Below are positions 1,955-60,600 of a stretch of 64,000 nt of DNA, piece after piece. The position numbers and the translations under genes are program-made. Below the pieces are notes generated by a model that searched no databases, was not told where the DNA came from, and saw only the letters and a list, made by a program, of their open reading frames with translations. How positions within the stretch are numbered: position 1 is the first letter of the stretch; every line of letters begins with the position of its first letter. This stretch comes from Candidatus Parvarchaeota archaeon (GTDB lineage Archaea; Nanobdellota; Nanobdellia; Parvarchaeales; Parvarchaeaceae). The stretch covers positions 1,706 through 65,705 of the forward strand of contig JAMCRO010000019.1 in assembly GCA_023380615.1 (NCBI GenBank). The letters are read 5' to 3'.

Positions 1955-3109
1955 TTATTTGGTAAACTCCTGAAGAGTAACGCCTTTAATGAAGTTATTG
2001 AATCCTGAATTGAGTTCATTTACATAGTTGTTTCCATCAGAAAGAGCCGATATTTCATAAAGACTGGAATTGTCTACCGCAAGGACTGTTATCACCTCTG
2101 ATTGATTGACTTTAACTAAATATGGGGAGAACTTTACTAGGCCTACAAACCCGCTAAGGCTGCTTATGCTATAATTCGTTCCTATGTTAAAATCATTTTC
2201 GTATTCACTTGCATTGCATTTTTCTTCCGGAAAAAGAACATTAAAGGTTTCATTTGGTTTTATGACTGCTATAGAAGAGTTGAATACTGTGCTGTTTAAA
2301 GGGGTCATATTAGCAATTGAATAGATCGAAGCATTTGTTATTTTAACTGTCTGATTCAATTTACTCCGTAGACTAGCATCAAATCCTGAACTATTGCATT
2401 TGTATCCCGTCAGATTAAATGCTCCATAAGATTCAGAAAGCGAGGAATTCGAAGGAGGAGTGGTATTCTCTATTGCCTCAACTGCAGGTATGCCTCCAAC
2501 AGTTATGTTATAAAGCTTTTGGGAATTGGACAAAGCATAATAGTAGTAGCTAAGGCTTTCGTTGTTTTTCAGGGTTCCCAGTAAAAGAAGCATTCCATTT
2601 AACCCCTCTGGAGAAGAGCCATTTTCAATTGCTGTTGCAGCATTTCCCGTGCCGAAAAGTACGTAGCTTTCAAAAGAAGTTGAATTAAGTCCTTCTGCGT
2701 TTTCAGCCTTCAATGAAAGGTTTATCCTATTAATACCAGCAAAATTACTTGAAATTAATGTATTTAGAGCTGAGTTTGCAGCAGTATTAGTAGTAGAGCT
2801 AGGCGTGCTTAAACCCAGAGTGTGTCTTACAAAGATCCTTACTCCTAATATGTTGTAGTGATAAAGGAAATATGCAATTATAAGAAGGATTATGATAACG
2901 ACTACTGCAATTACTATATATTTATTAATCTTGATTTCACTGCCAGGACTATTAGGTATGCTATCATCAGAAGGAAGCACATTGCTATTGGAAGATTTTT
3001 CCTCTTTATTATTTTGACCGTTATCTGCGGGAACATTTTTACTGTTGTTATCTGCAGGCGTACTTTCCTTCTCTGTTTTATTGGTTGGATTACTGGGTAC
3101 TTCGTCCAT
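1955..3109 (-). CDS. type-II membrane-anchored Ser/Thr/Asn-rich surface glycoprotein
   Basis: An 80-aa polar N-tail (NPTNKTEKESTPADNNSKN...) is followed by one hydrophobic TM (YIVIAVVVIIILLIIAYFLY) and about 300 aa of S/T/N-rich sequence with many N-x-S/T sequons. It is a paralog of the partial gene at 1..383. Confidence 0.7.
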   Translation of the reverse strand: MDEVPSNPTNKTEKESTPADNNSKNVPADNGQNNKEEKSSNSNVLPSDDSIPNSPGSEIKINKYIVIAVVVIIILLIIAYFLYHYNILGVRIFVRHTLGLSTPSSTTNTAANSALNTLISSNFAGINRINLSLKAENAEGLNSTSFESYVLFGTGNAATAIENGSSPEGLNGMLLLLGTLKNNESLSYYYYALSNSQKLYNITVGGIPAVEAIENTTPPSNSSLSESYGAFNLTGYKCNSSGFDASLRSKLNQTVKITNASIYSIANMTPLNSTVFNSSIAVIKPNETFNVLFPEEKCNASEYENDFNIGTNYSISSLSGFVGLVKFSPYLVKVNQSEVITVLAVDNSSLYEISALSDGNNYVNELNSGFNNFIKGVTLQEFTK

Positions 3110-3213
3110 TTTATATCAAAATTTTGGTGATATTTAAACGTTATCTATAACACTAGCAAGGATATTTTTAATACCAAATGATTTAAATATTCCGATTACT
3201 TAAAAAATATCTT

Positions 3214-39168: not shown

Positions 39169-39564
39169 TTACTTATTTTTCTTTTTTGTTTTAAGAAATT
39201 TTATATAGCTAAGAAAGGATTTTGGATGATCTATACTTGTAAACGTTACAAAAAAGCAAGCAAGTGCCAAAATTGCGATGCCACTTAAAAGCTCCCAAAT
39301 ACTCAAAGGATTAATAAAAAAACTGACTATAAAAGCAGATATGAAGCCTATAGCCAGAGAACTGCCTGCTATCACAAGAAACAAAAATGCAAGTATGTAC
39401 CTTTTTGGATTATTAAACATGTACGTACCAAAAAACTTGTTTGCTTCTTCTCTGGAACCATATTTATAAGAAGATAACATAAAATAAACAAAGCCTAAAG
39501 TAGACACTAAAATTATTGCTCCTGAAATAATCCCAACTAAGCCAAATACTTCGTTTTCTATCAT
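39169..39564 (-). CDS. small polytopic membrane protein (second gene of membrane cassette copy A)
   Basis: Four hydrophobic helices. The start overlaps the stop of 39561..39926. It resembles 47809..48126 and 49026..49331 in size and position. Confidence 0.45.
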   Translation of the reverse strand: MIENEVFGLVGIISGAIILVSTLGFVYFMLSSYKYGSREEANKFFGTYMFNNPKRYILAFLFLVIAGSSLAIGFISAFIVSFFINPLSIWELLSGIAILALACFFVTFTSIDHPKSFLSYIKFLKTKKKNK

Positions 39565-39926
39565 ATAAATCTTTTAAACCTCGTATACCAAAAATGCATA
39601 TCCAATATAATGAAAACCGAAGCAATTACAGCAAAAATAAAACCCAAAAAGAATGTGGAATACTGCAAAATCGTTGTTGGATTAAACCCTCCGTCAAGAA
39701 AATCCGAAAAAGCCATTAAACCTGTAAGAAAGGCAAATAAACCGGCAAATACAAAGTAAGGAGTTCTTATTTTTTCCGGATTTAAAAGATAACTTAACAA
39801 GGGGGCCTTGTCCTTTTTATGTTTTATCAGCGCTCTTAATATTATCATGCCGTAGTAAACCGCAAAAATGCCCAGTACGCTTAGTAGTCCGAAAATTACT
39901 TCATCTGCTGTTTTAAGGTATAACAT
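39561..39926 (-). CDS. small membrane protein of the KH(K/R)KDKAPL family (cassette copy A)
   Basis: ALIKHKKDKAPLLSYLLNPEK aligns with VLYKHKRDKAPLVSWALNEKD (48123..48470) and AIFKHRKDKAPLTSFFLNKDS (49328..49693). All three have a TM helix on either side of this motif. Confidence 0.5.
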   Translation of the reverse strand: MLYLKTADEVIFGLLSVLGIFAVYYGMIILRALIKHKKDKAPLLSYLLNPEKIRTPYFVFAGLFAFLTGLMAFSDFLDGGFNPTTILQYSTFFLGFIFAVIASVFIILDMHFWYTRFKRFI

Positions 39927-43240: not shown

Positions 43241-43495
43241 TTATTCTGCTTTAAGCCATTTCCTAGATAAAAATGCTCCTACCCCTAAAAATAAAAAGCA
43301 AAAAATGACCAAATACGGGAGAAACAGGAAGTTTGTAGGAGTAAGCAGCTTTATAGTGGTGGTTTTTCCTGCCCCATTCGGGCCAAGCAAGCCGAATATT
43401 TCACCTTTCTTAACAGTAAATGAAATGTCATCTACGGCCTTAAAATTGCCGTAACTTTTGCTAAGATTTCTTACATCTACTGTTATTTCATCCAT
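43241..43495 (-). pseudogene. truncated duplicate of an ABC ATPase N-terminus (Walker A only) fused to unrelated hydrophobic sequence
   Basis: The first about 52 aa ([46 protein letters not shown]) parallel the start of the adjacent ATPase ([42 protein letters not shown]). The sequence then diverges into [19 protein letters not shown]... Confidence 0.45.
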
Positions 43496-43496
43496 A

Positions 43497-44087
43497 TCAC
43501 TTTAGTAAACTATGCAACCTGTCCTCTATCATCTTTAATGCTTTCTTGTTTTCCTTGCTGAGAATCTTTTCCTTTTCCGATATAAACTCAGATAAGTTAT
43601 CTAAAGTTTCTATGGTCTCATCTATGCTTGTTCCCTCATCTTTATTCATGAAGGAAGAAGCGGATCTCCATGGGAACCAGGAGCTGTCCAGATACTCTTT
43701 TCCTTTTTCAGTAACTGAGTAATATTTTTTATTGTCCTTCTGTTCTACTTTCACAAAACCGCTTTCTGATAGGTATTTTAATATAGAGTATATACTTCCG
43801 GGAGAAGGCCTCCAGAAACCAAAGCTCATTTCATATATCTTGTCTATCATCTGTGCACCGGTCATTTTTTCCTTTGAAACCAGCATCAATATCCAATATT
43901 TTATACCGAAACCGCGGCTTATGCCGTGCATTGAGTGTGCAAGTTTATGTACCATATTCGGGTCTATATTGAATCCAAAGTTTACTTCATTAAAATCATC
44001 TTCTTTGTTTTTCATATTTTCCACCTTTAATATCGTTTTACGATATCTATTAAAGATATCTTTTATATTTAAATACTTTTCTGCCAC
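43497..44087 (-). CDS. PadR-family transcriptional regulator with N-terminal extension
   Basis: [50 protein letters not shown] matches the PadR winged-helix signature (W.PSPGTLYP.L..LE). Confidence 0.65.
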
Positions 44088-44783: not shown

Positions 44784-45453
44784 TTACTCTTCAAGTCCGT
44801 GTATTCTATAAGACAAACTTAAGGAATACTTGTTTGCAAGGTCACTAAGCTTAGTTTTTAATTCGTATTTGTTTGAAAGCGTATAAAAATTAATATCAAT
44901 TGCAACCATTTTAGGATTAAAAACCTTGTAGCTTGAAGAGTAAACCAATGAATCCTTCTCCAAAAAGCTTTTAAAATCATTGGCTTTCGAAAAAACATCC
45001 AAATTCGGTTTTCCAAACAAAGTTAAACTGCAATCAAAGAGTAGCTCTTCCAGCCGCTCATTTTTTGGGTTTTGTACCATTGTCCTGCTTAAAAAGAATT
45101 TTGTATACATGAGCTACAGTATAGCCATATATCCCTGTTTTGACCTGCCTTTTGTCGTTAAAGTCTATGCTAAAACGGCTGTATTCTACTTTTTTAAGGC
45201 CTTTTTCGAAAATAGAATGCATATACTCCTTAGTAACTCCTTTCAGCTCTTCGGTGTTGAGAATATAAGAATAATCCAATACACTTTTATGGCCGTTTTC
45301 AAGGATATACGAAAGCTCCTCTAAAATCTTGGAATATTGCCTGCCAAATACTTTTTTAGACATCTCTTCAGTGGAAACACTGCACAGCTCCTCTAAAGCA
45401 TGCCCGTATTTGCTGTTATTTGCCTGCCCCCTGCTTGCTTTTTTATTTTGCAT
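44784..45453 (-). pseudogene. hypothetical gene apparently split by a frameshift (ORFs 45058..45453 and 44784..45110 overlap by 53 nt in different frames)
   Basis: Two same-strand ORFs of 131 and 108 aa overlap and are in an operon-like arrangement with the three hypothetical genes upstream. No family was recognised. This could be an authentic frameshift, a sequencing error or two overlapping genes. Confidence 0.3.
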
Positions 45454-45493
45454 AAAGCTCTATTAGATAAACGCTCTTATTAATACTTTTTTG

Positions 45494-46219
45494 TTATGAC
45501 ATGGGTTTTATGTTACTGCCCTTCCCCTTATTAAAGGAGTAATCAATTGAATTAAACATGTCCATAAAATCCGTAAATTCTATGGCCCTGCCATAAAATG
45601 CTATTGCAATGCTTGCTTTGTCTCTTAAAGAGAAAAGATTAAAATCGGTGTATGCCTTTGGATCCTGTCCGCTTTTCAACGTTTTCTTATACAGCAAGGA
45701 CTTTGCCTTTCTCGGGTCTAAGTACTTTTTGAAGCCATATGAAAAAAGACATGCATAATTTGCGTTTACAGAATGGACATAATCAAGCTTTGGAAGTCTG
45801 TTTGAAAGACTCACTTCATCTTTTAGTATCTTGTTTCTTGTATTGATAATGCTGTCATATTTTTTCCCCCACACATTACTTGCGCATAGGTCTTTCCCTG
45901 AATCCAATACTTTGTATATAGCTTCAAGCTCGTAGTCCTTCATTGCCTGAAGTTCTTTGTAGCTATTACTTACCATAAAAGACAAGTTCTTTTCAAGCGA
46001 ATTGAAATGATTGATATAACCGGAGAAAAATGGGCGCTTTTTCTTGTCTATTACCTGCTTGTATACACTTTTGTCTCCGCTTTTTGCATAAAAATTAAGT
46101 AATGATTCGGACATTATAGGCCCGAGCTCGGATAACAATTTATACAGATTAGAATCTTGATCTACCTCTTTGTAAGTTTCAACGTAGTTTGCTTCTTTTT
46201 TAGGGAATAAAACCTTCAT
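45494..46219 (-). CDS. hypothetical lysine-rich soluble protein
   Basis: The ORF is intact (241 aa). It sits 6 nt downstream of the 302-aa hypothetical. Confidence 0.4.
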   Translation of the reverse strand: MKVLFPKKEANYVETYKEVDQDSNLYKLLSELGPIMSESLLNFYAKSGDKSVYKQVIDKKKRPFFSGYINHFNSLEKNLSFMVSNSYKELQAMKDYELEAIYKVLDSGKDLCASNVWGKKYDSIINTRNKILKDEVSLSNRLPKLDYVHSVNANYACLFSYGFKKYLDPRKAKSLLYKKTLKSGQDPKAYTDFNLFSLRDKASIAIAFYGRAIEFTDFMDMFNSIDYSFNKGKGSNIKPMS

Positions 46220-46225
46220 ATGGAG

Positions 46226-47134
46226 TTACCTTATCCTGAATCCCGGATAAAGCGATTTGTATTTTTCAGTATACTTGTTAATTAGCATGCCCTGTTTAAA
46301 CTCTGCTAATTTTATACTGCGGTTTATTGACTTAACCCTGTGCTCGTCAGATGCAAAAAAGTGTGATTTTACATCTTGCTTGTTGATTGGATTTATGAAC
46401 CCTATTTTTGCTTTCTTATTTTCATCCCAATAAACGGTTATATTTTCAACGTAAAGATTATTATGCGATAATCCGTTCTGATTTATGTAGTTTACGGTCT
46501 CATTAATCTGATTCTTTATGTCTTTTAGTTCTTCCATCCTTTTTTTGTAAACATCTATCCTTGCCTGGTACTCTTTAAGGTACCTTTCACCATATGCAAG
46601 CCTTCTAATACCCTTCTTGAGTATAAACTTATTAAGTTCATCTCTTGGAATCAAATCCTGAAGAGAGGTTACCCTGCTTATGCTTTCAGCTATCAATTTT
46701 TCATCCCAGTCCTTGTAATTATTAAGATAATCCTGCAGAGAAACGGCCTTTGGAATGTAGCTTCTTACTTCACCACCCTCAAAAGACGTATTTATATAAC
46801 CAACTCTCCTGGATGAATCATCTACAATTAATGCAACAGGTTTTGGAAAGTTCTCGGGTTTCGCAGTGTAAAGGTCATTTAACAGTTTGTACTGCCTTGC
46901 AAAATAATCATCAAAAAAGCCAGTGTTATATAGGTTATTAAACTGAAGGTATTCTCTGCTTTTTACCTTTGGGAAGGAATCTGCTACACATCTTTCATTT
47001 ACTGACAGACCAGAATCATTGAAGTAATTTGAGCTCTTTACAAATTCCCTTTTCAAAGTTGGATTACCATCTGCATCGCTTTTATATGGTAGTGACTTAA
47101 GTAATTTTTCAATATCCGACGATTTCTTTGCCAT
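46226..47134 (-). CDS. hypothetical protein (weak kinase-catalytic-loop-like segment)
   Basis: The ORF is intact (302 aa). LSHNNLYVENITVYWDENKKAKIGFIN loosely resembles the HxDxxxxN ... DFG region with substitutions. This is speculative. Confidence 0.4.
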   Translation of the reverse strand: MAKKSSDIEKLLKSLPYKSDADGNPTLKREFVKSSNYFNDSGLSVNERCVADSFPKVKSREYLQFNNLYNTGFFDDYFARQYKLLNDLYTAKPENFPKPVALIVDDSSRRVGYINTSFEGGEVRSYIPKAVSLQDYLNNYKDWDEKLIAESISRVTSLQDLIPRDELNKFILKKGIRRLAYGERYLKEYQARIDVYKKRMEELKDIKNQINETVNYINQNGLSHNNLYVENITVYWDENKKAKIGFINPINKQDVKSHFFASDEHRVKSINRSIKLAEFKQGMLINKYTEKYKSLYPGFRIR

Positions 47135-47241
47135 ATCATTAATTTAATTACTTTTTAATTGTAAATCATAGATGATTTCTAATATAAATAGTTAACTGTT
47201 ATCGATATTTGACAAAGAATCATGGCTTTCAAAAAAGCAGC

Positions 47242-47757
47242 TCATCTAAAATAAGAGGCACTCTTGTAATCTGATAATCTAATACTAGTTGCCGCAACAA
47301 GTTTTTTAAAGGATTCTTTATCTAGATCTTTTATAACATCATAATTTAAGTATACTTTGTAATCACCTGAATTCAAAGGCTTTATGTAGGCGGCAGGCCT
47401 AACATTCCCATTAACTTTTACACCAAAGTATTCTCTCTCCAAATCAGGGTACCTTGTCCTGTAAACCCCTGACATGTAAAACAGAGGAACGCTGTCGTTC
47501 ATAGCATTACTACCATAGTCAGATACGCTACCGCTCTTTATTATATAATCACTTGATTTCCCTGGAAACTTTGAATCTTCCTTTCTTTTTCTTACGAGTT
47601 CAATTTTTATGTTCTTGAAATAATCCGATAAATCATTATAAGGAAATTTCAATATCTTTTCAGGATCTTCATTATTTAAATCATCAAGGATTACGTCTAG
47701 ATTTTTCCTCAATTTATCAAGGCCTTTGAACGCTTTATTTATATTTTTTCCTAACAT
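47242..47757 (-). CDS. hypothetical lysine-rich soluble protein
   Basis: The ORF is intact (171 aa) and is the first gene of the co-directional block 47757 to 44784. Confidence 0.4.
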   Translation of the reverse strand: MLGKNINKAFKGLDKLRKNLDVILDDLNNEDPEKILKFPYNDLSDYFKNIKIELVRKRKEDSKFPGKSSDYIIKSGSVSDYGSNAMNDSVPLFYMSGVYRTRYPDLEREYFGVKVNGNVRPAAYIKPLNSGDYKVYLNYDVIKDLDKESFKKLVAATSIRLSDYKSASYFR

Positions 47758-47808
47758 GCTTTTAAAAGAATACTAATCTTATAAAAGCTTTTCCATTTTA
47801 AATTAAAA

Positions 47809-48126
47809 TTAGTCCAGTTTATATTTCTTTGATATAATGCGGGTAATAGCAAAAAAGAAAAATGAAGTGCCTAAAGCATAAATTAATATGCCAAATAAAT
47901 CAGAAGTATTTGAAGAACTGAAGAACTGAAATATATAACCTATTAAAAATACAAAGTTCATCGACAGAAATATTATGAATACGTTAACAGAGTTCTTGTT
48001 AAGCCTTATCAGCTGAACTGCTTTCAAAGGATTTTTATAAAAGACAGATGTAAATCTTATTACAGATACTGCTATTAGTATACCTACAACCACAATAGTA
48101 ATTGCTTCATAAAGTTCGATGCTCAT
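47809..48126 (-). CDS. small polytopic membrane protein (second gene of cassette copy B)
   Basis: MSIELYEAITIVVVGILIAVSVIRFTSVFYKNPLK is homologous to MSIDFIYGVISLILGALMLLFILMLRKKLNKNPTL of 49026..49331. The start overlaps the stop of 48123..48470. Confidence 0.5.
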   Translation of the reverse strand: MSIELYEAITIVVVGILIAVSVIRFTSVFYKNPLKAVQLIRLNKNSVNVFIIFLSMNFVFLIGYIFQFFSSSNTSDLFGILIYALGTSFFFFAITRIISKKYKLD

Positions 48127-48470
48127 ATGTACCTAAGAAAAATTTTAGACCATCCCACTATTACGTAGCTAACCAAAAGATAAGTAACGGTCCCTAAAAG
48201 CTCTGCAGCCATCTTGATGTAGTCACTGCTGGTAAATGAACCAACGGAATAAACCGTAAAGACAACAATAAATAAAATAGAAGCGAATAAAAGAATTGAG
48301 AAATTATTCTTTGAATCCTTCTCATTTAATGCCCAACTAACCAAGGGGGCTTTGTCCCGCTTATGTTTGTAGAGTACATAGATGTTTATTCCACTTAGAA
48401 CAGAGATGATTAGTCCGTTTACTACTTCAAAGATTACCCAATACAAATGAAAATCTTGGTATAAAGCCAT
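48123..48470 (-). CDS. small membrane protein of the KH(K/R)KDKAPL family (cassette copy B)
   Basis: VLYKHKRDKAPLVSWALNEKD is flanked by TM helices. Confidence 0.5.
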   Translation of the reverse strand: MALYQDFHLYWVIFEVVNGLIISVLSGINIYVLYKHKRDKAPLVSWALNEKDSKNNFSILLFASILFIVVFTVYSVGSFTSSDYIKMAAELLGTVTYLLVSYVIVGWSKIFLRYI

Positions 48471-48582: not shown

Positions 48583-49029
48583 ATGAGAAAAAGCAGAAAA
48601 AAATTGGGTTTGTTCGAAGGTAACCTGGTTCCAGTAACTGGAAAGCATATTTTCGGCAACCTATATGACGTGGATGATTCTATTCTGAAAAACCTTGAAT
48701 ACCTGAAAGAATCGGTAATATCTGCGGCAAATGCTGGCAATCTTCATATAATAGACATAATGGAAAGACAGTTCAATACAATAAACTCTCCGGATATAGG
48801 TGGAGTATCAATAATTGCATTGATAGTTGAAAGCCACATATCATTGCATACCTGGCCTGAAAGCAGATATGCTACAGTAGATATATACTCTTGCGGGAAT
48901 GAAAGCAACCCTTCACTTGCATTTGATTACATTGTTTCGATGATGAAACCCAAAAGCTACAGAGTTTTCAGCGCGGACAGAAGCAATCCTTCAAGCGAAA
49001 ATGAAGCTAAGGTATTCAACGATTTTTAA
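48583..49029 (+). CDS. speH: pyruvoyl-dependent S-adenosylmethionine decarboxylase proenzyme (class 1b)
   Basis: ESHISLHTWPE carries the Glu-Ser self-cleavage / pyruvoyl site. The length of 148 aa is typical of archaeal and bacterial SpeH. An arginine decarboxylase of the same fold cannot be excluded. Confidence 0.8.
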   Translation: MRKSRKKLGLFEGNLVPVTGKHIFGNLYDVDDSILKNLEYLKESVISAANAGNLHIIDIMERQFNTINSPDIGGVSIIALIVESHISLHTWPESRYATVDIYSCGNESNPSLAFDYIVSMMKPKSYRVFSADRSNPSSENEAKVFNDF

Positions 49030-49331
49030 GACAGGGACATAAACAGGAAAAACAGGGCAAGAGTAGTAAACAATACAATATTCCCATATTCCCAGATAAG
49101 AGTTGTTGGATTGCTCAATGAAACAAATGTAGTTATCCCATAATTTATTACCAAAACCAAGGTAGTCACAAAGAAGAATACAAATGCAAACTGCTTGTAC
49201 TTTTTAATGTAAAACGAAGATAAAAACAAAGTTGGATTTTTATTTAGCTTCTTTCTTAGCATCAGTATAAACAACAGCATTAACGCACCCAAAATCAATG
49301 ATATAACTCCATATATAAAGTCAATGCTCAT
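49026..49331 (-). CDS. small polytopic membrane protein (second gene of cassette copy C)
   Basis: It is homologous to 47809..48126. The start overlaps the stop of 49328..49693. Confidence 0.5.
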   Translation of the reverse strand: MSIDFIYGVISLILGALMLLFILMLRKKLNKNPTLFLSSFYIKKYKQFAFVFFFVTTLVLVINYGITTFVSLSNPTTLIWEYGNIVLFTTLALFFLFMSLS

Positions 49332-49693
49332 ACAAACCTCCTAAAAAGCTTGAACCAGCGGAAAGATATGTATACGACAATAAACAATGCAGCTATCCCA
49401 AACAGATAAGCAAGGTAAAATAAAACTTGATCTATGGTGAATAATGAAGGGTAGTTATTAAGTAACTTTTGAATGAACGTAAACAATCCTGTCAAAAAAA
49501 GCATTAATGCTGGATAAATAAACATGTTTAACTCTTTTGTAGCCGAATCTTTGTTTAGAAAGAAAGAAGTCAAAGGTGCCTTGTCTTTTCTGTGCTTGAA
49601 AATGGCAAAGAAAGTTATACCTGAAAAAACTGAACTGACAATCCCACCTATAAAAAGCACAGCGAATATCACTGTGTAAGCTATATTCAGCAT
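49328..49693 (-). CDS. small membrane protein of the KH(K/R)KDKAPL family (cassette copy C)
   Basis: AIFKHRKDKAPLTSFFLNKDS. The overall layout is collinear with 39561..39926. Confidence 0.5.
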   Translation of the reverse strand: MLNIAYTVIFAVLFIGGIVSSVFSGITFFAIFKHRKDKAPLTSFFLNKDSATKELNMFIYPALMLFLTGLFTFIQKLLNNYPSLFTIDQVLFYLAYLFGIAALFIVVYISFRWFKLFRRFV

Positions 49694-49739: not shown

Positions 49740-50186
49740 TCAGTTTTTAAGAAATGCCAATATCTCTTCTGCGTGTTTGTCAGGAGAAACCTTTGGGTAT
49801 ACTTTCAGGATTTTACCATCCTCATCCAATATGAATGTAACCCTTGAAGCAACACCTAACATGGATTTTATTCCAAGCTTTGCAACGATTTTTTTATCAG
49901 AATCACTTAATAATGTGAATGGGATAGAATATTTACTTTTGAATTTCTTGTGTGATTCTATGCTGTCAACGCTTATTCCAAACACAGGAATTCCTAGAGA
50001 TTTAAAGGACTTGATATTGTCCCTGAAACTGCATGCCTCTTTTGTGCATCCTGGAGTATCATCCTTCGGATAAAAGTATACAACACTTTTCTTGCCCTTT
50101 AAATCAGATAAAGAAACTTCTTTTCCGTCATCTGCTTTAAGCCTGAAATCGGGAAACATATCTCCTTCTTTGACTTCCATATGCAT
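49740..50186 (-). CDS. bcp: peroxiredoxin, Bcp-type thiol peroxidase
   Basis: FPDFRLKADDGKEVSLSDLKGKKSVVYFYPKDDTPGCTKEACSFRD carries the PxxxTxxC peroxidatic motif. The start is set at an internal ATG (MHMEV...). The ORF-track start 50261 would overlap nth. Confidence 0.8.
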   Translation of the reverse strand: MHMEVKEGDMFPDFRLKADDGKEVSLSDLKGKKSVVYFYPKDDTPGCTKEACSFRDNIKSFKSLGIPVFGISVDSIESHKKFKSKYSIPFTLLSDSDKKIVAKLGIKSMLGVASRVTFILDEDGKILKVYPKVSPDKHAEEILAFLKN

Positions 50187-50215
50187 ATAAAGAAAAACAA
50201 GTATATAAGGTTTAT

Positions 50216-50866
50216 ATGCCAGAATTCGTTTTACTTGAGCAGAAAAAAGCAGAAAAAGCAATAGATATACTTGAAAACAGATACAGAAACGTAGGCTATT
50301 ACCTTAATTTCAGCGGACCATTGCAACTTTTAGTTGCTGCAATACTGTCCGCACAGACAAAGGATACGGTTGTAAATGAACTAACTCCTGGGCTTTTCAA
50401 AAAATACAAGACTTTAGAAGAATTTGCAGAAGCAGATCCACATGAGCTGCTAAACTACGTAAAAAGAGTCAGCTTTGCAGAAAACAAAGTAACGCACATA
50501 ATAAACTGCTGTAGTATAATAAAAGAAAAGTACGGAGGAGAAGTGCCGGATAAGATGAATGATCTACTTTCATTGCCCGGTGTCGGAAGAAAAACAGCAA
50601 ATACCATTTTGATAAATGCATTCAACATAGTGGAAGGCATACCTGTAGATACATGGGTGATGAAGCTCTCTTATAGGATAGGGCTAAGCAAAAGCAAGAA
50701 ACCAGATGAGATAGAAAATGACCTTAAAGGCCTTGTTAATAAAAACTACTGGAAAAACTTTGCTTATGTGCTTAAGGAGCACGGTCATCAGATCTGCCAG
50801 TCTGTGAAGCCAAAATGCGAGATATGCCCTATAAAGGAGATATGTCCAAAAAACGGAGTTAACTAA
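50216..50866 (+). CDS. nth: endonuclease III (HhH-GPD DNA glycosylase with 4Fe-4S cluster)
   Basis: The HhH LPGVGRKTANTIL and the C-terminal CQSVKPKCEICPIKEIC (C-x6-C-x2-C-x5-C) are present. Confidence 0.85.
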   Translation: MPEFVLLEQKKAEKAIDILENRYRNVGYYLNFSGPLQLLVAAILSAQTKDTVVNELTPGLFKKYKTLEEFAEADPHELLNYVKRVSFAENKVTHIINCCSIIKEKYGGEVPDKMNDLLSLPGVGRKTANTILINAFNIVEGIPVDTWVMKLSYRIGLSKSKKPDEIENDLKGLVNKNYWKNFAYVLKEHGHQICQSVKPKCEICPIKEICPKNGVN

Positions 50867-51696: not shown

Positions 51697-54600
51697 TTAG
51701 GGTAGTACACTGCCCAAGCTAACGGAAGGCATTACGCCGTCTGGAGGATATACACGAATTCTAAACCAATATATTGGTCCTATTTGCGGTGAAGTAGTAC
51801 TTTGTTCTCCTATTATACCAATCTTTAGGGAGGATGAAGGATTAGTAGTTATTTTCCCCTTTGAACCGTAATTATAGGAGAAATAAGATGCAGAAGAATT
51901 CGGCCAATAAATCTGCCATAAATTAGTTCCTGAGGTCGTTGGTGAACTTAAAGCTGTTCTTGTTCCTCCATCTGTTTGTATTGTCTGCGGGTAAGCTGTA
52001 GATATAGAAAGACTTCCTGTTCCACTGTAATCTAACATAGTCCAAGCAACTTGCATATCATAGGAAGTAGTGCCTGTGATAAAGCCTATAGCTGACTGAT
52101 CTGCAGAGGTTGATGAAGGGATATCCCCGTAAAATTCAAGTAGAGTATCTGAACTTGGGCCGTAAGTATCGTTTGTTTCAATAGCCCCTGTTCCGCTTGA
52201 GGGGTTTATGGTTACGCCATTATTTATGCTCACTGTTCCAGAAGATGTCCATCCAGATGGAACTGTAGTTCCAGCGAAATTCCAGTATTCAGTGAATACA
52301 TCTACCCCATCGTCATATTCCCCATACGTTGAAGAAAGCTGTGGAGCTTCGCCAGTATTGTTGGTATTAAACAGATTTGTATCATTTGATGCAAAGCCTA
52401 TTGCAACGTCTTGTATGGTCGTATCTGCAGGTATGCCGTTCGGCAATTTGATCCAGAATATGGCGTACTTTGAAGTGTAGCTCTCAAGCCATGAATCTAG
52501 TACCTTGCCGGTTGCAATGTTAAAGAACTCAACGTTTTGTAAGGAATATTTGCCAGTCTGGTTTATGTATTGGCTATCTGATGAAGTTATAGTCAAATTA
52601 ATCATCTGCTGGAATGGCACTGAAGTAGGAATAGACTGAGCATTGGTTATATTTATCGGCATATAATAAATTAAGGAAGAAGACAACTGTGGGTATATAT
52701 CTCTTGTTATTGTAATAGAATTTGCAGTATAATTCTGATTTCCACTAGTATTTAGAACTATAGTATAGTTTCCTACACGACTACTTAAATTTAATGTTGT
52801 ACTTTTGTTTATAGTTTTATTAAAAATGCCATTTATATACAATGTTGCATTTAACTGGTTGTTAATAGTAGATATCGATACGTTTATTATGAGACTTGTT
52901 CCATTATATAGATAATTTTTGTTAGGATTTGACACCAGATTAAGTACGGGAGTTGCTTTGTTTATTGTATTATAATAGGACACATTTTTTATGCTCGTGG
53001 AATTGGATCCTCCGATTACTTTTATTTTCCCTGCAGCAAAAAGATTAGAATATGTTGAAATATTGCCAGATAAATTGGTTAAAGATACTACTGAATTATT
53101 TAACTCCTTCCAAAGTTTGACATAGTGATTATCAGACTCAACTGTAAAATTACTATCTTTACCATAAATCATTGTAATATTATTGTTCGAGATGCCGTTT
53201 ATAAACAGAGTTATTGGTTTCGTAACTAATGTATTTAATTTAACAGAAGGCATTACGCCGTCTGGAGGGTAAGCACGAACATTAACCCAATAAACAGATA
53301 TGGGATTAGTATACTCATTAGTTAAAGATAAACCAATCGATGATGAATATGCTGGAATAGTAGTTGTTATGGTTTGTCCTGAACTTCCTAATGTTGAATA
53401 GGTATTTGGATTATAAAATAAAACTTGCGTGTCCGTAGCGGCTATACTCCATATAACGGAAGTATTTGCTAAAGAACTCCAAGAACCTATCTCATTTTGT
53501 GTTCCTGATGAGCCAGCATCTGTATTTGCATACCAATTTCCATTATCATATATCTGTTCGCCAAAAGATTGTGTAGATGAACCTCCAAAGTAAGTTGGAT
53601 TTGAATTTGTAAATCCCCATCTAAATGTTGTATTAGTTGAGGGGCTATTTTCATAAACATCTGCCACTACAGATCCATCGAAACTTCCAGAACTTAAAGA
53701 GGTTTTAATCCAAGTTTGATGAGAAAGCCCTCCTGTTCCGCCACCTGTTAAAGTTAATTTATTACTCACTATAATATCTGAGGTAGAACCACTTGTTCCT
53801 GAACTGCCAAAGCTGCTCCACTTTGTAGTATTTAAACTAGTTCCTTTAAAGTTATCGTAAAAATTGAATACATTGGCTCCATCGTCGTATTCTGCATATG
53901 TAGGGGATAGCTGAGGTGCTTCACCAGTATTATTAATGTTAAACAGATTTGTATCATTGGATGCAAAGCCTATTGCAACGTCTTGTATGGTCGTATCTGC
54001 AGGTATTCCGTTCGGCAATTTAATCCAGAATATGGCGTACTTTGAAGTGTAGCTCTCAAGCCATGAATCTAGTACCTTGCCGGTTGTAGTGTTAAAAAAC
54101 TCAATATTTTGGAAGGAATGTTTGCCAGTCTGGTTTATGTATTTGTTATATGATGAGTTTAACGTTAAATTAATCATCTGCTGGAAAGGCTGTTTAGTAG
54201 CAGAAGTTTGAGAGTTGGTAATGTTCAACACTGCGTATTTGTAAATACTTTGAGGAGTAACTAAGCTATGTTTAGAGAAGTTTATCGTAAGTTTTCCAAA
54301 TGAAACCGTATAACCGGAAGAAGAATTTGGTACATAAATTTCACTTGAAAAGGTTATATTGTTGATACTGTAACTGTAATTGCCAAAATTACTTGCAAGT
54401 GTTATCAAGTTTGAGATTGAAGAGTTCACTTTATTGTCGTATTTCACAGTCCAATTGGTACCCGAAGGAAGCCCTTCTTCAACAAATTGCTTAATGCATG
54501 CCCAGCTAGATATGTTGTTAGAAGTTCCTGGGTCTGCAATGCCATTGGACGAACAACTTATGTTTGACCCCGCAGAATAAGTATAAATAATCGAATTAGA

Positions 54601-57600
54601 GGAATTAAAGTTTATTTTTATCGCACTCCCAGTTTTATTGCTATTGTTTACCCCGTTGTAATCAACCCACCAATTATTGCCTTTAGGCAGTGTACTCTGA
54701 TTGAAAGTAGTGGTGCAGTCCCAATTAGAAAAGACATACGTAGAACCTGCCTCAACGGATGCGGGCTTTACCCTGCACGACATATTAGTTGACGCCGTTG
54801 CAGTATAATTACCATACGGAATATTGTGAATTATTATCGTATTATTCGAATTATTTAAAGAGGTCTTTGGCGCAATAAATGACACTGTTGGCATAACACC
54901 GTTAGGATATGAAAGTGCTATAGTTGGAGCTGTCAAAATGAATCCTCCTGGACCACAGCTCCCCCCGCCGTTTCCTCTAGAAGTGCCCAAGAGATACTGC
55001 CCAGGGGGTAAATTGACTGAACCGTAGGATGATAGACAGTAGGGTGTGTTAAAGAAATCGTTGAAATATGATTTGCCGGTTGAAACGCTGATTATACTCA
55101 ATCCAGAGTAACCCCCGCTTCCACCTGCCATGTAAATATTAACATCTCCCCCTCCCCATGAACATATCATTTCATTATTTCCTCCAGGATAGTTCTCCAT
55201 GTTAAAGAAATCGCCACATGATGTGTAATTTTCACTTAGCTTTACGGGAAGCTGGGAACCTGTTGAGGGTTGAGGGTACGGGCCTAACTTTGGAGATACA
55301 CTTGAATTAAGGCTATTAAGTACATCTGTAGAATTCGATGCAAACCCTATATAAACATATGTAAACGAATTGGCAGGTATCTCCCCCAAATCTAACCAGT
55401 ATACCGCATCGTTACTGTAGCCGTAGTTTTCAAGCCAACTGGAAATTATTGTTCCGTTTGGATAGAAAAATTCAACATTTTGGAAATTGGATGCTGCGAG
55501 ACCCCCGTAAACTGTATTATTTACAGTTACCATTTGCTGGAAAGAAGACGCTGTGGAAACATTCTGAAAATTGCTTATTTTTAAAAGCTTATATTTTGTT
55601 ATGTTACTTAAATCTGAAGTTTGGGATGCAGAAGTACTTCCATTTTTGCCATCGAAAGCAACAGACCAGTTACCTATAAGACCCTTCTCTGAGAAAACAG
55701 TTGTACAGAGATCAGACGATAATGAAAAGTGAATATTAATAATAGCCCCTGCATTTTCTTTGGAATCAGTAACGTTTGAAGTATATGTAGATATACAGTT
55801 TAAGGTTGATGATTTATTTGAAGAAGTATAAACTGATAAATTATAACGGCCTGGAACGGTACTAAAAGTCATATAATCAGCTGTTGCGGATTTATTTATT
55901 CCATCAAATGAAGCGTACCAGCGGTACCCTTGCGGTAAACCGGTCTCTGTTAAATTTGTTGTTACCAGCGTAAGATTAATAAAAACAGAAGGCATTACTC
56001 CATTTGGAGGATAGGCACGTACACGAATCCATTGATATTGCTGATCAAATGACGCCCCATTACCTGTGTTATAATCCCCCAAATTAATATAAAGAGGTGC
56101 AGAAGGATTATCGGAAGTAGTTGAAGATGTGGATCCGTAATTAAGAAAAGTAGTTACTCCATTAACTGAAGATAATGAAACGGAATAGATGTTCCAGTTC
56201 AAATTATAGGATGTTGATTGGAGATATGTATATGCCCCATTAAGAACACTTTCGGATTGGATAATATCCCCTAAATTGTCCTTTCCTGCCGACCACCCTG
56301 CAATTGTATCTCCAGTTCCACCATTATTATCCCAAACAGGCTCTGAATTGCTGACAGTAGATATCCCTATAAGTCCTCTTTCATTTCCAGTATTTCCCTT
56401 ATTTTGATTAATGTAACCTTCCAATATCTCATTATTACTAAATACCTGATGAGTAGTTGCAACATATGTCGAACCAGACGTGCTTCCATCTCCACTTATG
56501 GTAAGACCGTTATCTACGGAAACTTTTGACCCTGAAACCGCACCAGAATTCCATATATTTGTATTTAAACTTGTTCCGTTGAAGTTAGCATAGAAGTTAA
56601 ATACATTTGCCCCATCATCATATTCCGCATATGTTGAAGATAACTGTGGTGCCTCTCCTGTTGTGTTGATATTGAAATTATTGGAATAAGCTAGGAGGGT
56701 CTGATTGAATATCATGTCAATGGCTATGCTGCTTTCCGCCGGAATGCTTTTAATTTTTAGCCAGTATACAGTATCATTTGAGGTATTCGAATTACCAGAT
56801 TCCAACCATGAAGGAATAACTGTTCCATTCTGATATGTAAACATTATGTTTGTTAATTTGGAGTTTTCATCTTTTGAATATTTTGAAGAGTTAAAAACAA
56901 GCATCTGCTGGAAGGGTTGTGAAGTTGCTGTTGACTGGTTATTATAAAACGAAATAGGGATTATAACGGGCTTTTTATAAGCAGAAGTATCATTTGAAAA
57001 TACAAATGTTGCATTAGATCCGGATGCAATGAATCCACCAGATATATTAGACAAAAAGCCAGAGTTGTAGTCTACTGATGGATAAACCTTGAAAGTATAA
57101 TTATCACTATAAGAAGTTGTAAATTCCATAATATTTGACTTAGAAGAACCATTTTTACCGTTTAAATTTACTATCCAGGTATAACCTGATGGAAGCCCTT
57201 CTTCTTTAAAGTAGGTATGACAAACGCTACTGAAATTGATCATTTCTGTAGAGCCTGAAGTGACACTGCCAGAAGAAGGGACTGGAATAAAATTACACTG
57301 CGATTGGTTTTCAGCTTGTACCGAAAAACCAAAAGAAGACAAAGCAGAGGTATTGAAAGTAATATTGCTGGAGATGGAAGAATTCTTTATACTGTTATAT
57401 GTAACTGACCAATTATCTTTTAAAGGCAAGCCGGTTTCATTAAATGTAGTTATACAAAAGGAAACTGAAAAACTTACATCTGTATCTGAACCTGCAGCAA
57501 TACCGCCGTTTGCAGGAGTAGCAATGTATCTACAGCCTGCAATATTCACTGCAGGCACTGTAAAGTTATACAGCCCTTTGGTGGTATTTAAAGAAATATA

Positions 57601-60600
57601 TTTTTTGGTAGATGAATTTGACATATTTGCAAAGGTTACGCCCCATTTTGTACTGCTAGGTAAACCGGATTCGGTGAAATTAGAGATACAATAATCTTCC
57701 GTAAACTTTACATAGGTATAATGGCCTGCTTGTGCATAACCATTTGATTCATTGGAAACAAAATAACAATTATGGTAATCAATAGATGGCACAGAAAATG
57801 AATAATTACCACTTATAATATTGAAACTTATGTCCGATAAAGAAGATGAATTAGTCAGATTATCGTACTTTACAGCCCAGCTAATTCCGGACGGTAAGCC
57901 GGTTTCTATAAATTCGGAATAACAGTAATTTGAAAAGCTAATAATTGTGCTTGATCCAGCAGTTAAATAGCCGCTGCTTGGATCTGGCGTAAGATAACAG
58001 TTTGTTGATACTTGTATCCTTGGCACTGAAAAAGAGAAGTTTCCATAAATAGAGTCCACATCCAATGAACTATTAGAAGAATAATTTGTTATACCGTCGA
58101 ATTTAACACTCCAAGTTATTCCTTTTGACAAACCTGTTTCATTAAATAAAGTTATACAAGAAGAAGAAAAAGAAAGAAGTAAAGAAGAGCCTGCAGCAAT
58201 GTGACCGTCGCTTGGATTTGGAGTAAAGACACAGCCACCATCTTTTATGCTGTATGCAGTAAAGTTAAAAGTACCCGGAATCGTTGATAGCTCTAATGAA
58301 GTTTTATTTGAACTGTAATTGATATTATTATAAGTTAACGTCCATTTTGTATTAGAAGGAAGGTTACCCTCTGTAAATGTAGTGTAGCATCTTGTCTGAT
58401 TGAATATTAGATATAAAGTTGACCCAGCAGCAAGTTCTGAAGAGCCATTCTTGGCAACATACAGACAGTTATTTAAAGTTAAGTTTTCTACAGTGTACTT
58501 AAAAGTGCCTGGAGGAGTCACAAACTGGATGCTTGTACTTGTAGACGCACTGCTCTGATTATCATATGTTAAATTCCATTCACTTCCCGGTGGCAGCCCG
58601 TTCTCATAGAATACGGTTGTGCATCCTCCACTGTAACTTACGCTAACCCTTGAACCCGCTATCGTATTTCCAGAAGAAGGATTTGGTCGGTATGAACAGC
58701 TGGAATTGCCTATAAATGGCAGACTATACGCATAAGTACCGTTTATTGATGGCACTTTTATTACAGAGGCATTTGATGAAACCGTAGTGCCGTTATATGT
58801 AACAAACCAGTATGTGTTTTTTGGCAAGCCGGTTTCATTGAAAGAAGTAAGGCATGATGCAGTAAAATGAACTGTGAAATAACCTCCTGCTGCGGTACTA
58901 CTAGACAAAGGTTCCGGAGAAAATACACAATTAGATAGATTTATTGGATAAAATTTTGCCGTAAAAATTCCGGGAGGGGTGGTTATTGTAACGTTATTAT
59001 TAGAGGGACTCTCTGTTATCCCGTCAAAGGTAAGCTTCCACTGCGTATTAGCCGGCAAACCCCTCCCTATAAAGGTAGTATTGCAGGTATTTTCAATAAA
59101 TGATATATTTATATTTCCACCTGCGATGAGATAGCCTGAAGCGGGGGAGGGCAAAAAGGAACAATATGAAGAATCAACCGTATTCAAAGAAAAAGAGAAA
59201 TTACCCGGAGTTGTTATAAAGCTTATATTGGATAGGCTGGAAGAATTAAGAATTCCGTCATATTTAACAGACCAAGTAGCACCTGAAGGCAATCCATCCT
59301 GAGAAAATGTGGATAAGCATTCCTTTGTATATGAAATACTGGCAGATTCTCCTGCCACTAAATAGGAAGATTCAGGTTTAGGATAATAAAAGCACCCAGG
59401 CCCTGCATTTATGATTTCGGAAGTATAAGAGTGATTTCCGGGTAAAGCGTATATTATTACTGATTTATTGAAAGAACTTCCAGACACTCCATCAAAATTC
59501 ACATCCCACTCTGTATCATTTGGCAAGCCGGTTTCATTAAAAATAGTCTTGCAAGTGTTTATATAAGTAGCATTGACATACGAGCCTACTTCTGTAGTTC
59601 CACTTGGTGAAGTTAAATTTATATGGCAACCGTCCTCTGAAATGCTTTTAGGCTTTATATGATAATTATAAGAGTTATTCGAGAAAGAGTCATTAAATAT
59701 TATTTTTGAAGTATTGGATGCTTTTGATAAAACATTGAAGGTAACATTCCATTCACTATCGCTTGGTAAGCCAGTTTCCTTAAAAGTAGTAAGACAGAAT
59801 ATTCCTGTGAATTTAATATTCAAAATAGATGATGTGTTGAGTGTACCCTGTGTTACGTTTGAAGTATAGAAACAGCCGCTACTTTCAGCAGTGAATACTT
59901 TAAAGTTATACGATCCTTCGTTTGTTAAGAATGAAATTTGATTGGAGTTGGAGGAAGCGTTTATATTATTAAAGGACACATACCAGTCTGTCCCTTTCGG
60001 AAGACCGGTTTCCTTAAAAGAGGTTATACAGTTATCTCCAAAGATTATAGAAAGGTTATTACCGGGAGCTATTGATCCGGAAGAGGGCTGTGGGTCATAT
60101 GCACAGAATGTATTTATTGGTACGCTCTCTACGGAATACGGATTGGCGGATGAATTTGAGGAACTAACTATTATTTTATTTGAGGTAGAAGAATATAATT
60201 TGTAGGAATATATTTCAGATGGATTTGGCAAATTATAATCAAAATAAGAGGGAAAAGAATCATTTACTTCCCACTTTGTACCGTTAGGTAAGCCAGTTTC
60301 TGTAAAAATAGTCTTGCATGCAGCACTAAAATGAACCGTAATATGAGAACCTGCAACTAATATCTCATTATAACTTGTAGAAAAAACACAGCCGTTTATA
60401 CTTACAGTAGGGATATGAACAGAGTAGTTTCCTGGATCCGTTGTGACTACGGTAAAATTCCTTGTTGAATAATTAGTTATATTGTCTATCGAAACGCTCC
60501 AATTTACATTTTTGGGCAGGCCTGTTTCAGTAATATTAGAAGTACATGAGCTTGGAGAGAAATAAACGCTGGCATTTCCACCTGAAACAAGATTACCGCT

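Follow-up and report, generated by a model that had tools for sequence, protein, structure and literature searches.

The genes analysed here form a block on the minus strand of a 64,000-nucleotide stretch of contig JAMCRO010000019.1 from a Candidatus Parvarchaeota archaeon (the window, whose positions are used as coordinates throughout; all features of the block lie on its minus strand). Five genes, which we call g1 to g5 in the direction of reading, occupy positions 44784 to 47757. The first, g1 (47242..47757), encodes a soluble, basic orphan protein of 171 amino acids with an isoelectric point of 9.3, and g2 (46226..47134, 302 amino acids) encodes a predicted pseudokinase with what is very probably a divergent protein-kinase-like (PKL) fold. 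These are followed by g3 (45494..46219, 241 amino acids) and g4 (45058..45453, 131 amino acids), both coding for soluble, basic orphan proteins, and by the orphan g5. The longest open reading frame (ORF) of g5 is 44784-45110 (108 amino acids), but the start at 45110 is a non-conserved extension, and we revised it to the conserved ATG at 45078-45080, which gives 44784..45080 and 98 amino acids. The overlap between g4 and g5 is 53 nucleotides by the longest ORF and 23 nucleotides from the conserved ATG, and the spacers elsewhere measure 107 (g1-g2), 6 (g2-g3) and 40 (g3-g4) nucleotides. Upstream of g1, on the same strand and 51 nucleotides away, lies a two-gene membrane cassette, cassette B (memB1 and memB2, 48123-48470 and 47809-48126).

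The original prediction, made from the nucleotide sequence, had described five tightly spaced, lysine-rich minus-strand ORFs that share the direction of the membrane cassette, lack transmembrane helices and belong to no family that could be named. Most of this description holds. All five frames are present in the ORF list for 40-52 kb with the strand of the cassette, and they are separated by gaps of 6-107 nucleotides apart from the g4/g5 overlap. The 19-residue Kyte-Doolittle mean peaks at no more than 0.87 in the block proteins, compared with about 2.5 in the membrane cassette, and none of g1-g5 matches Pfam, PHROGs, PADLOC or NCBIfam above threshold. The lysine content is not distinctive, since the 11.2-14.5% of the block sits inside the 9.3-15.8% of the soluble neighbours (sod, PadR, HAD, Prx, EndoIII and others); it is a trait of the AT-rich genome and not of the block.

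The block is confined to one clade and is kept there under selection. The exact window proteins were found on three metagenome contigs, and g2 has 12 homologues (58-99% identity), of which every one with a named source is from Candidatus Parvarchaeota or Parvarchaeum. A scan of one genome per species gave ten loci, all in Parvarchaeota-type DPANN metagenome-assembled genomes (labelled Parvarchaeota, Nanoarchaeota and once Woesearchaeota), and one more divergent metagenome locus was found beyond these. In the synteny table, built by tblastn and hidden Markov model (HMM) searches, nine lineages share the order prx - memA1/2 - speH(-) - memB1/2 - g1 - g2 - g3 - g4 - g5 - sod(-) - padR - ABC. Orthologues whose neighbouring sod is 88-98% identical are themselves 39-77% (g1), 58-86% (g2), 40-78% (g3), 50-82% (g4) and 35-76% (g5) identical, and the block proteins have 5-10 times as many nonsynonymous substitutions per site (dN) as the neighbouring sod, speH and prx. 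The ratio of nonsynonymous to synonymous substitutions (dN/dS, or omega; Nei-Gojobori) is 0.07-0.15 for g1, 0.05-0.08 for g2, the lowest in the block, 0.06-0.20 for g3, 0.06-0.19 for g4 and 0.12-0.18 for g5; the controls gave 0.01 for sod and 0.01-0.06 for speH and prx. All five genes are thus syntenic across the clade and under purifying selection, and because the orthologues of each gene are intact in about 10 species (about a dozen genomes carry the locus) and syntenic with dN/dS of 0.05-0.20, the ORFs are real, constrained coding genes. This excludes spurious ORFs, and the search for relatives placed none of the five in an ordinary housekeeping family.

The genes are not equally persistent. 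Nine lineages have all five, while L023 has g1, g2, g3 and g5; L006/L013 has g2, g5 and a decayed remnant of g1; and L016 has g1, g2 and an inverted g4. In the most distant lineage, L019, a g1-like gene (remote; hmmsearch E 9e-10) adjoins the g2-like gene, whose product is P0016, and a remote g5-like gene (E 3e-4) follows sod. As a result, g3 is missing from L006/L013, L016 and L019, and g4 from L006/L013, L023 and L019. The only block gene that is never lost is g2, which was found at every locus, and the adjacency of g1 and g2 is the oldest in the block.

In all likelihood, g2 has a kinase fold and is homologous to minimal PKL proteins. A profile of the g2 family searched with HMMER against 1.84 billion (1.84e9) representative proteins gave ten matches at E<=1e-3, which beyond the family's own fragments include a distant relative of 242 amino acids (P0016), a shrimp protein with four Pkinase domains (P0017, E 3.5e-12) and P0018-P0021. 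The small proteins P0018, P0020 and P0021 carry the canonical H-G-D...N and I-D-P motifs, and for P0018-P0021 the matches to the models of Pkinase, Kdo, Seadorna_VP7, RIO1 and OspG reach or narrowly miss the curated cut-offs; the scores of P0021 are 30.3 bits for Pkinase (cut-off 31.7), 24.0 for Seadorna_VP7 (20.3) and 21.3 for Kdo (21.3). Aligned with hhalign, the g2 family and P0018-P0021 match with 98.4% probability and E 6.8e-15 over 122 columns that cover alpha-C, beta-4/beta-5 (KPvaLivDDs..vGY), alpha-E, the catalytic loop and the DFG-equivalent segment. Left out of this alignment are the N-terminal ~75 residues of g2 and a helical insertion of about 75 residues between the hinge and alpha-E (residues 128-205; 46520..46753), which appears as an unaligned gap; the AlphaFold2 (AF2) model of g2 has helices at residues 133-138, 140-154, 164-174 and 176-219. 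Sub-threshold matches to Kdo and PK_Tyr_Ser-Thr recur in 7/13 and 5/13 of the g2 family members, respectively, with a best E value of 0.0012. The order of secondary-structure elements in the AF2 model fits a kinase, and all of the top-50 PDB matches and most of the top BFVD matches obtained with Foldseek are kinases. The stretch that had been singled out as faintly resembling a kinase catalytic loop (LSHNNLYVENITV...KIGFIN) derives from the kinase catalytic core and is a true remnant of a PKL catalytic loop.

Several observations weigh against this assignment. No curated PKL family reaches its gathering score on g2 (the best is Kdo with 15.8 bits against 21.3), and the match to P0017 was rejected as strong support since its E value of 3.5e-12 sums four near-identical domains of ~14 bits each. 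P0018-P0021 were recruited with the g2 profile itself, which makes the hhalign test less than fully independent. The quality of the AF2 model is only moderate, with a predicted local distance difference test score (pLDDT) of 65 and values below 50 for N-lobe residues 48-99, and the Foldseek scores are poor (E at least 0.17 in PDB and at least 0.026 in BFVD, TM-score at most 0.3).

The order of elements in g2 is like that of minimal PKL proteins such as RIO/Bud32, Kdo/WaaP (PF06293), the OspG/NleH type, Seadornavirus VP7 (PF07387) and P0018-P0021. Shared between them are alpha-C, beta-4/beta-5 (K-P-v-a-L-v.DDs...GY), the hinge, alpha-E, H-x-x-L-x-x-x-N, beta-7/beta-8 and I-x-P, and the C-lobe is short in both. 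In contrast to these proteins, g2 has Asn for both the catalytic and the metal-binding Asp and Gln for the Glu of alpha-C, as well as the insertion after the hinge, and it is not the housekeeping archaeal RIO or Bud32.

Each of these substitutions can be placed in the sequence. The equivalent of the catalytic loop, HNNLYVEN (residues 224-231; 46442..46465), aligns with the HGDLxxNN of the P0018-P0021 type and with the HND/HRD of Pkinase domains, which changes HxD to HxN and keeps Asn231. The metal-binding DFG/IDP equivalent, GFINPINKQD (residues 245-254; 46373..46402), aligns its I-N-P with the I-D-P of the canonical cousins, so that the Asp is replaced by Asn248. At the alpha-C Glu position stands Gln81 (46892..46894), placed by alignment only (RQY for the xE(F/Y) of the cousins); it is invariant in the family, P0016 and L023 included, and residues 82-91 are helical in the AF2 model. 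Across the orthologues the loop reads H-N-N-L-x-x-x-N, with HDN in one sequence, and the metal-binding segment reads (I/L/V)-N-P, with His in place of Asn248 in two sequences. H224, N226 and N231 are invariant in the g2 family, N226 and N231 even in P0016 and L023, and N251 and D254 are invariant in the family alignment.

Judged by catalytic competence, g2 therefore lacks the HRD/HGD Asp and the DFG/IDP Asp and has the loop Asn (231). A working definition of pseudokinases is a PKL fold that lacks the beta-3 Lys, the HRD Asp and/or the DFG Asp (PMC12599244); because the HRD Asp and the DFG Asp are lost, g2 is a predicted pseudokinase by this definition. Two of the three defining catalytic residues are lost in every member of the family, and the alpha-C Glu has apparently been replaced by Gln as well. 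From these motifs we infer that g2 does not transfer phosphate. Two points count against that inference: the beta-3 Lys could not be located, as it would fall in the unaligned, low-pLDDT N-terminal 75 residues, and proteins with Asn for Asp can still bind nucleotide or catalyse other reactions, which makes "non-catalytic" a conclusion drawn from the residues.

A further case of residue loss was seen in one of the cousins, P0019/P0033 (L021/L022, 6001-6756), which has HGY for HGD and Gln at alpha-C and keeps the IDP; no g1-like gene lies beside it. Loss of catalytic residues in this group of minimal kinases may thus have happened more than once.

Among the closest described parallels in motif state is ActPs2, a family of actinobacterial pseudokinases in which the beta-3 Lys is replaced by Arg, HRD has become HRN and the DFG is degraded (PMC12599244). 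Like ActPs2, g2 has an HxN loop, has lost the DFG Asp and keeps the loop Asn, and one could speculate that the Arg of its invariant E47-R48, in a predicted strand, replaces the beta-3 Lys as in ActPs2. Unlike ActPs2, g2 comes from DPANN archaea instead of Actinobacteria, there is no detectable direct sequence relationship between the two, and g2 derives from a minimal RIO/Kdo-like scaffold and not from Hanks-type bacterial Ser/Thr kinases, being a stand-alone soluble protein with no extra domains. The same Asp-to-Asn change is found in the top match of a PDB sequence search with g2, where GCN2 D835N, Rad53 and JAK2 chains were retrieved over ~50 residues from alpha-E to beta-8 (HRNL for HNNL). 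With E values of 0.02-1, which are not significant, the resemblance to HxN pseudokinase domains and inactivated kinases of eukaryotes (JAK2 chains and GCN2 D835N) is an analogy of motif state only and no sign of evolutionary closeness.

If g2 has lost phosphotransfer, it would act as a nucleotide- or ligand-binding scaffold or switch, and we put this mechanism forward tentatively. The likeliest partner would be g1, because of all the adjacencies in the block the most distant lineage retains g1-g2 alone, and because g2 is never lost. The genes g3, g4 and g5 would have joined later as dispensable components particular to the clade.

The conservation of the altered motif also invites a different reading, namely that g2 is an atypical but active enzyme on a repurposed kinase fold, in the style of AMPylation by SelO or glutamylation by SidJ, that uses Asn231, Asp254 and other invariant polar residues. 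Dead scaffolds often let such positions drift, yet H224, N226, N231, N251 and D254 of g2 are invariant and its dN/dS is 0.05-0.08. Extended to the neighbours, this view would make them, above all g3, substrates or further enzymes of a clade-specific modification pathway. The C-terminal half of g3 is rich in invariant polar and charged residues (RLP, HS.N.NY, DPRK and GRA.E.TDF), and the gap between g2 and g3 is only 2-6 nucleotides in all species aligned. Pseudokinases with alternative chemistry are documented, and inactive-looking kinase folds such as SelO and SidJ may catalyse other reactions (PMC12599244). SelO and SidJ share with g2 a kinase fold with a non-canonical active site, but neither has a sequence or profile match to g2, and the same is true of Fic and other known alternative-chemistry families. 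In addition, the DFG-type Asp that SelO retains (DYG/DFG; Table 1 of PMC12599244) is missing from g2. In g2, each of the three acidic residues that normally hold ATP and metal in place or serve as base is amidated. The absence of g3 from three lineages that keep g2 also speaks against a shared pathway, and we consider the enzymatic reading, including its extension to g3, unlikely.

The remaining four proteins gave no comparable lead. The g1 family comprises 16 clusters and g3 has 11 homologues (49-100% identity), all from Parvarchaeota and none with a precomputed Pfam domain. PDB profile searches with g1, g3, g4 and g5 returned only noise (TFB4, SV2C, Rpp30 and Nop5, E at least 0.1), and per-member Pfam scans of their orthologue sets found no recurrent weak match. 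The AF2 model of g3 is poor (pLDDT 52), with a helical N-terminal half and the conserved C-terminal half unmodelled, and the lack of any Foldseek match to it is uninformative rather than negative. A sigma-70 region-4-like helix-turn-helix in g4, suggested by the stretch VTKDYMRSIFEKGLKKV, was dropped as it had no PDB or Pfam support. No paralogy was detected among g1-g5 or with other ORFs of the window (hhalign probability at most 2.3%, each HMM matching only itself). At the sensitivity used, g1, g3, g4 and g5 are orphans without detectable relatives outside the clade.

The original prediction had also joined g4 and g5 into a single frameshifted gene of about 240 amino acids, which could arise from a sequencing error in a run of six A, from pseudogene formation or from programmed frameshifting. 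The window offers grounds for this idea: g4 ends in ...ACA AAA CCC AAA AAA TGA, with the A6 run (45061-45066) directly before the stop, and the downstream frame is open at +1. The identical junction is present in three independent assemblies, which speaks against a random error and not against a real frameshift. The relatives, in contrast, show four different arrangements. In L004/L005 (g2 86% identical) and L008 (73%) the two ORFs likewise lie in different frames, and their junctions (...AGAAAATGA and ...ACTAAATAG, respectively) have no homopolymer and no A6 run. A gap lies between the two genes in L015 and L017. A solitary g5 is found in L006/L013, where a 98-amino-acid g5 with its own ATG directly follows g2 and both g3 and g4 are absent, and in L023, where it comes after g3 and g4 is absent. 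In L016, g4 stands alone, inverted and without g5. All g5 orthologues start at the same conserved ATG and share the N-terminus M-V/A-x-N/K...L(E/D)E.L(F/L)DC, and no fused g4-g5 homologue was found among the relatives compared. Because relatives show g4 and g5 in two frames, gapped, solitary or inverted, the frameshift is refuted, and we regard a single gene of any of the three kinds as extremely improbable. The two are separate genes whose stop and start overlap by 23 nucleotides (45058..45080, ATGGTACAAAACCCAAAAAATGA), and this overlap is not a frameshift site.

In L017, on the plus strand at 2887-3193, the g4 orthologue itself matches as two pieces in different frames (2887-2985 and 2987-3193). 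Either a real frameshift or pseudogene or a fault of the assembly could lie behind this, the only frameshift-like signal found within the block.

Conserved promoter-like elements divide the block. A BRE/TATA-like box (BRE, transcription factor B recognition element), AAAAGCTTTTATAAG at 47778..47792, lies 22 nucleotides before the g1 ATG, is conserved in 7 species and would be a promoter of the leaderless type. Upstream of g2, the TATA-like ATTTATATTAG (a TTTATAT box, 47179..47189) is present in all aligned species and probably serves g2-g3, and in the g3-g4 intergenic alignment a further BRE/TATA-like box, AAAAGTATTAATAAG (45476..45490), lies 24 nucleotides before the g4 ATG as a putative g4-g5 promoter. 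The boxes before memB1, g4 and speH have leaderless-type spacing like that of g1, and the intergenic alignments show no BRE/TATA-like box before g3 or g5. In the window, a T6 run (47230-47238) follows the g1 stop. A bacterial-type promoter and terminator scan, which is not applicable to archaea, was not enriched over shuffles, and an Rfam scan of the region gave no noncoding RNA match at E <=0.1. Because the conserved boxes precede g1, g2 and g4, the block appears to comprise three transcription units, and the predicted arrangement is memB1-memB2 / g1 / g2-g3 / g4-g5. The earlier description as an uncharacterised operon is thus right about an uncharacterised co-directional cluster, but a single five-gene operon is doubtful.

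Between its box and its start codon, g2 has a 23-nucleotide leader, TTTACAATTAAAAAGTAATTAAA (47143..47165), that is unique in the window and nearly invariant across species in which synonymous sites are saturated. It has no notable RNA structure (z = 0.34) and no Rfam match. The leader may be bound by a protein, or it may belong to the promoter or initiation region.

The orphan status, fast protein evolution and patchy loss of the block would also be accounted for if a mobile element or virus had left it behind as a domesticated or decaying remnant, or if it were a conflict system for defence or symbiont-host antagonism, and the original prediction had likened it to an accessory island. The locus is indeed plastic. 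The dN of its proteins is elevated relative to sod, speH and prx, as described above; g1, g3, g4 and g5 were independently lost or rearranged in L006/L013, L016, L023 and L019; a TnpB/IS605 element has inserted at the block edge in L010; and the window lineage has lost a pair of ABC genes. Viruses and secreted effectors are where minimal kinases are typically found, and the cousins of g2 match Seadornavirus VP7 and OspG kinase models, one of them coming from a <0.22 µm ocean fraction. Against this, the block occupies the same chromosomal position, between memB and sod, in all relatives, and its genes are under purifying selection with omega of at most 0.2. In GC content at third codon positions (GC3) and in codon usage it falls within the span of its neighbours, the window has no tRNA, and neither flanking repeats nor an integrase were found. 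There are no homologues of the block in IMG/VR, INPHARED or PLSDB, which cover viruses, phages and plasmids, and none in PHROGs, and the PADLOC defence models gave no match except an insignificant one at E 0.028. The evidence is against a genomic island or integrated mobile element, and the broader reading as an element remnant or conflict system seems to us improbable.

As a whole, the block is best explained as a vertically inherited five-gene cluster of soluble, cytoplasmic proteins, restricted to Parvarchaeota (ARMAN-type DPANN), in which g2 would be a pseudokinase scaffold or switch that probably works with g1. Taken together we hold this to be moderately probable, with high confidence in the anatomy and low confidence in the scaffold mechanism. 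Two points weigh against it: the evidence linking the five proteins, physically or functionally, is their adjacency, and the predicted separate promoters together with independent gene losses mean that the proteins need not work together. A more far-reaching version, in which the triple-amidated g2, its ancient partner g1 and four unseen folds form a Parvarchaeota-specific multi-protein module, for example to sense or regulate attachment to a Thermoplasmatales host, with the 23-nucleotide g2 leader as a regulatory site, strikes us as distinctly unlikely.

Pseudokinases and minimal kinases are already known kinds of protein, and orphan clusters are common in DPANN genomes. Prokaryotic pseudokinases are little studied, however, and DPANN archaea have tiny genomes in which most clade-conserved genes are unannotated. 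Clade-wide purifying selection in such tiny genomes suggests that genes of this sort are likely to matter for the unusual lifestyle of these organisms. The main Parvarchaeota genomics paper and our DPANN and pseudokinase literature searches do not mention this cluster, and the searches found no pseudokinase described in DPANN archaea. What is new here is a kinase-fold family, very narrow and so far undescribed, that combines a uniformly amidated active site with a large insertion. Also new are four orphan families restricted to the clade, with their pattern of presence and absence, and the correction of an apparent pseudogene call at g4/g5. If g2 is truly a minimal stand-alone archaeal pseudokinase with a co-inherited small partner, it would be a simple system for studying the role of dead kinase folds, although without a known function its practical impact stays modest.

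Some features of the surrounding region deserve mention. The element in L010 (JAJZBD010000002.1, 5074-6279, minus strand) is a 401-amino-acid TnpB/IS605 OrfB inserted between memB2 and g1, with OrfB_IS605 (E 2e-25), Cas12f1-like TNB and HTH_OrfB domains, and it puts the g1 promoter region 1.35 kb from the membrane cassette. In the window, an 84-amino-acid ORF labelled an ABC ATPase (43241-43495, minus strand) is an in-frame deletion remnant: residues 1-52 match the N-terminus of a 322-amino-acid ABC ATPase and residues 41-84 the C-terminus of the 255-amino-acid ABC-2 permease encoded next to it. The two full-length genes survive in L005, L008, L012 and L016. The window lineage has lost ~1.6 kb, and L006/L013 has a similar remnant of 70 amino acids.

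Cassette B is one of three paralogous two-gene cassettes of small proteins with multiple transmembrane segments (49026-49693, 47809-48470 and 39169-39926, all on the minus strand). Identity among the first genes of the cassettes is 25-37%, speH (48583-49029, plus strand) lies between two of the three, and none of the cassette proteins has a family match. Cassette B is missing in L016, and near speH in L019 only cassette A is found. Further upstream, a 3888-amino-acid ORF (51697-63363, minus strand) combines an N-terminal transmembrane segment with repeat modules, numbering in the dozens, that are rich in N-x-S/T sequons; its sole family match is a weak one to DUF2341, its orthologue in GCA_025920205.1 has 4540 amino acids, and it is presumably a surface or S-layer-type protein. 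The starts of two neighbouring ORFs on the minus strand are likely over-extended, namely padR (43497-44087, GTG start, 196 amino acids), for which gene callers and orthologues use 172 amino acids, and prx (49740-50261, TTG start, 173 amino acids), for which they use 146-147.

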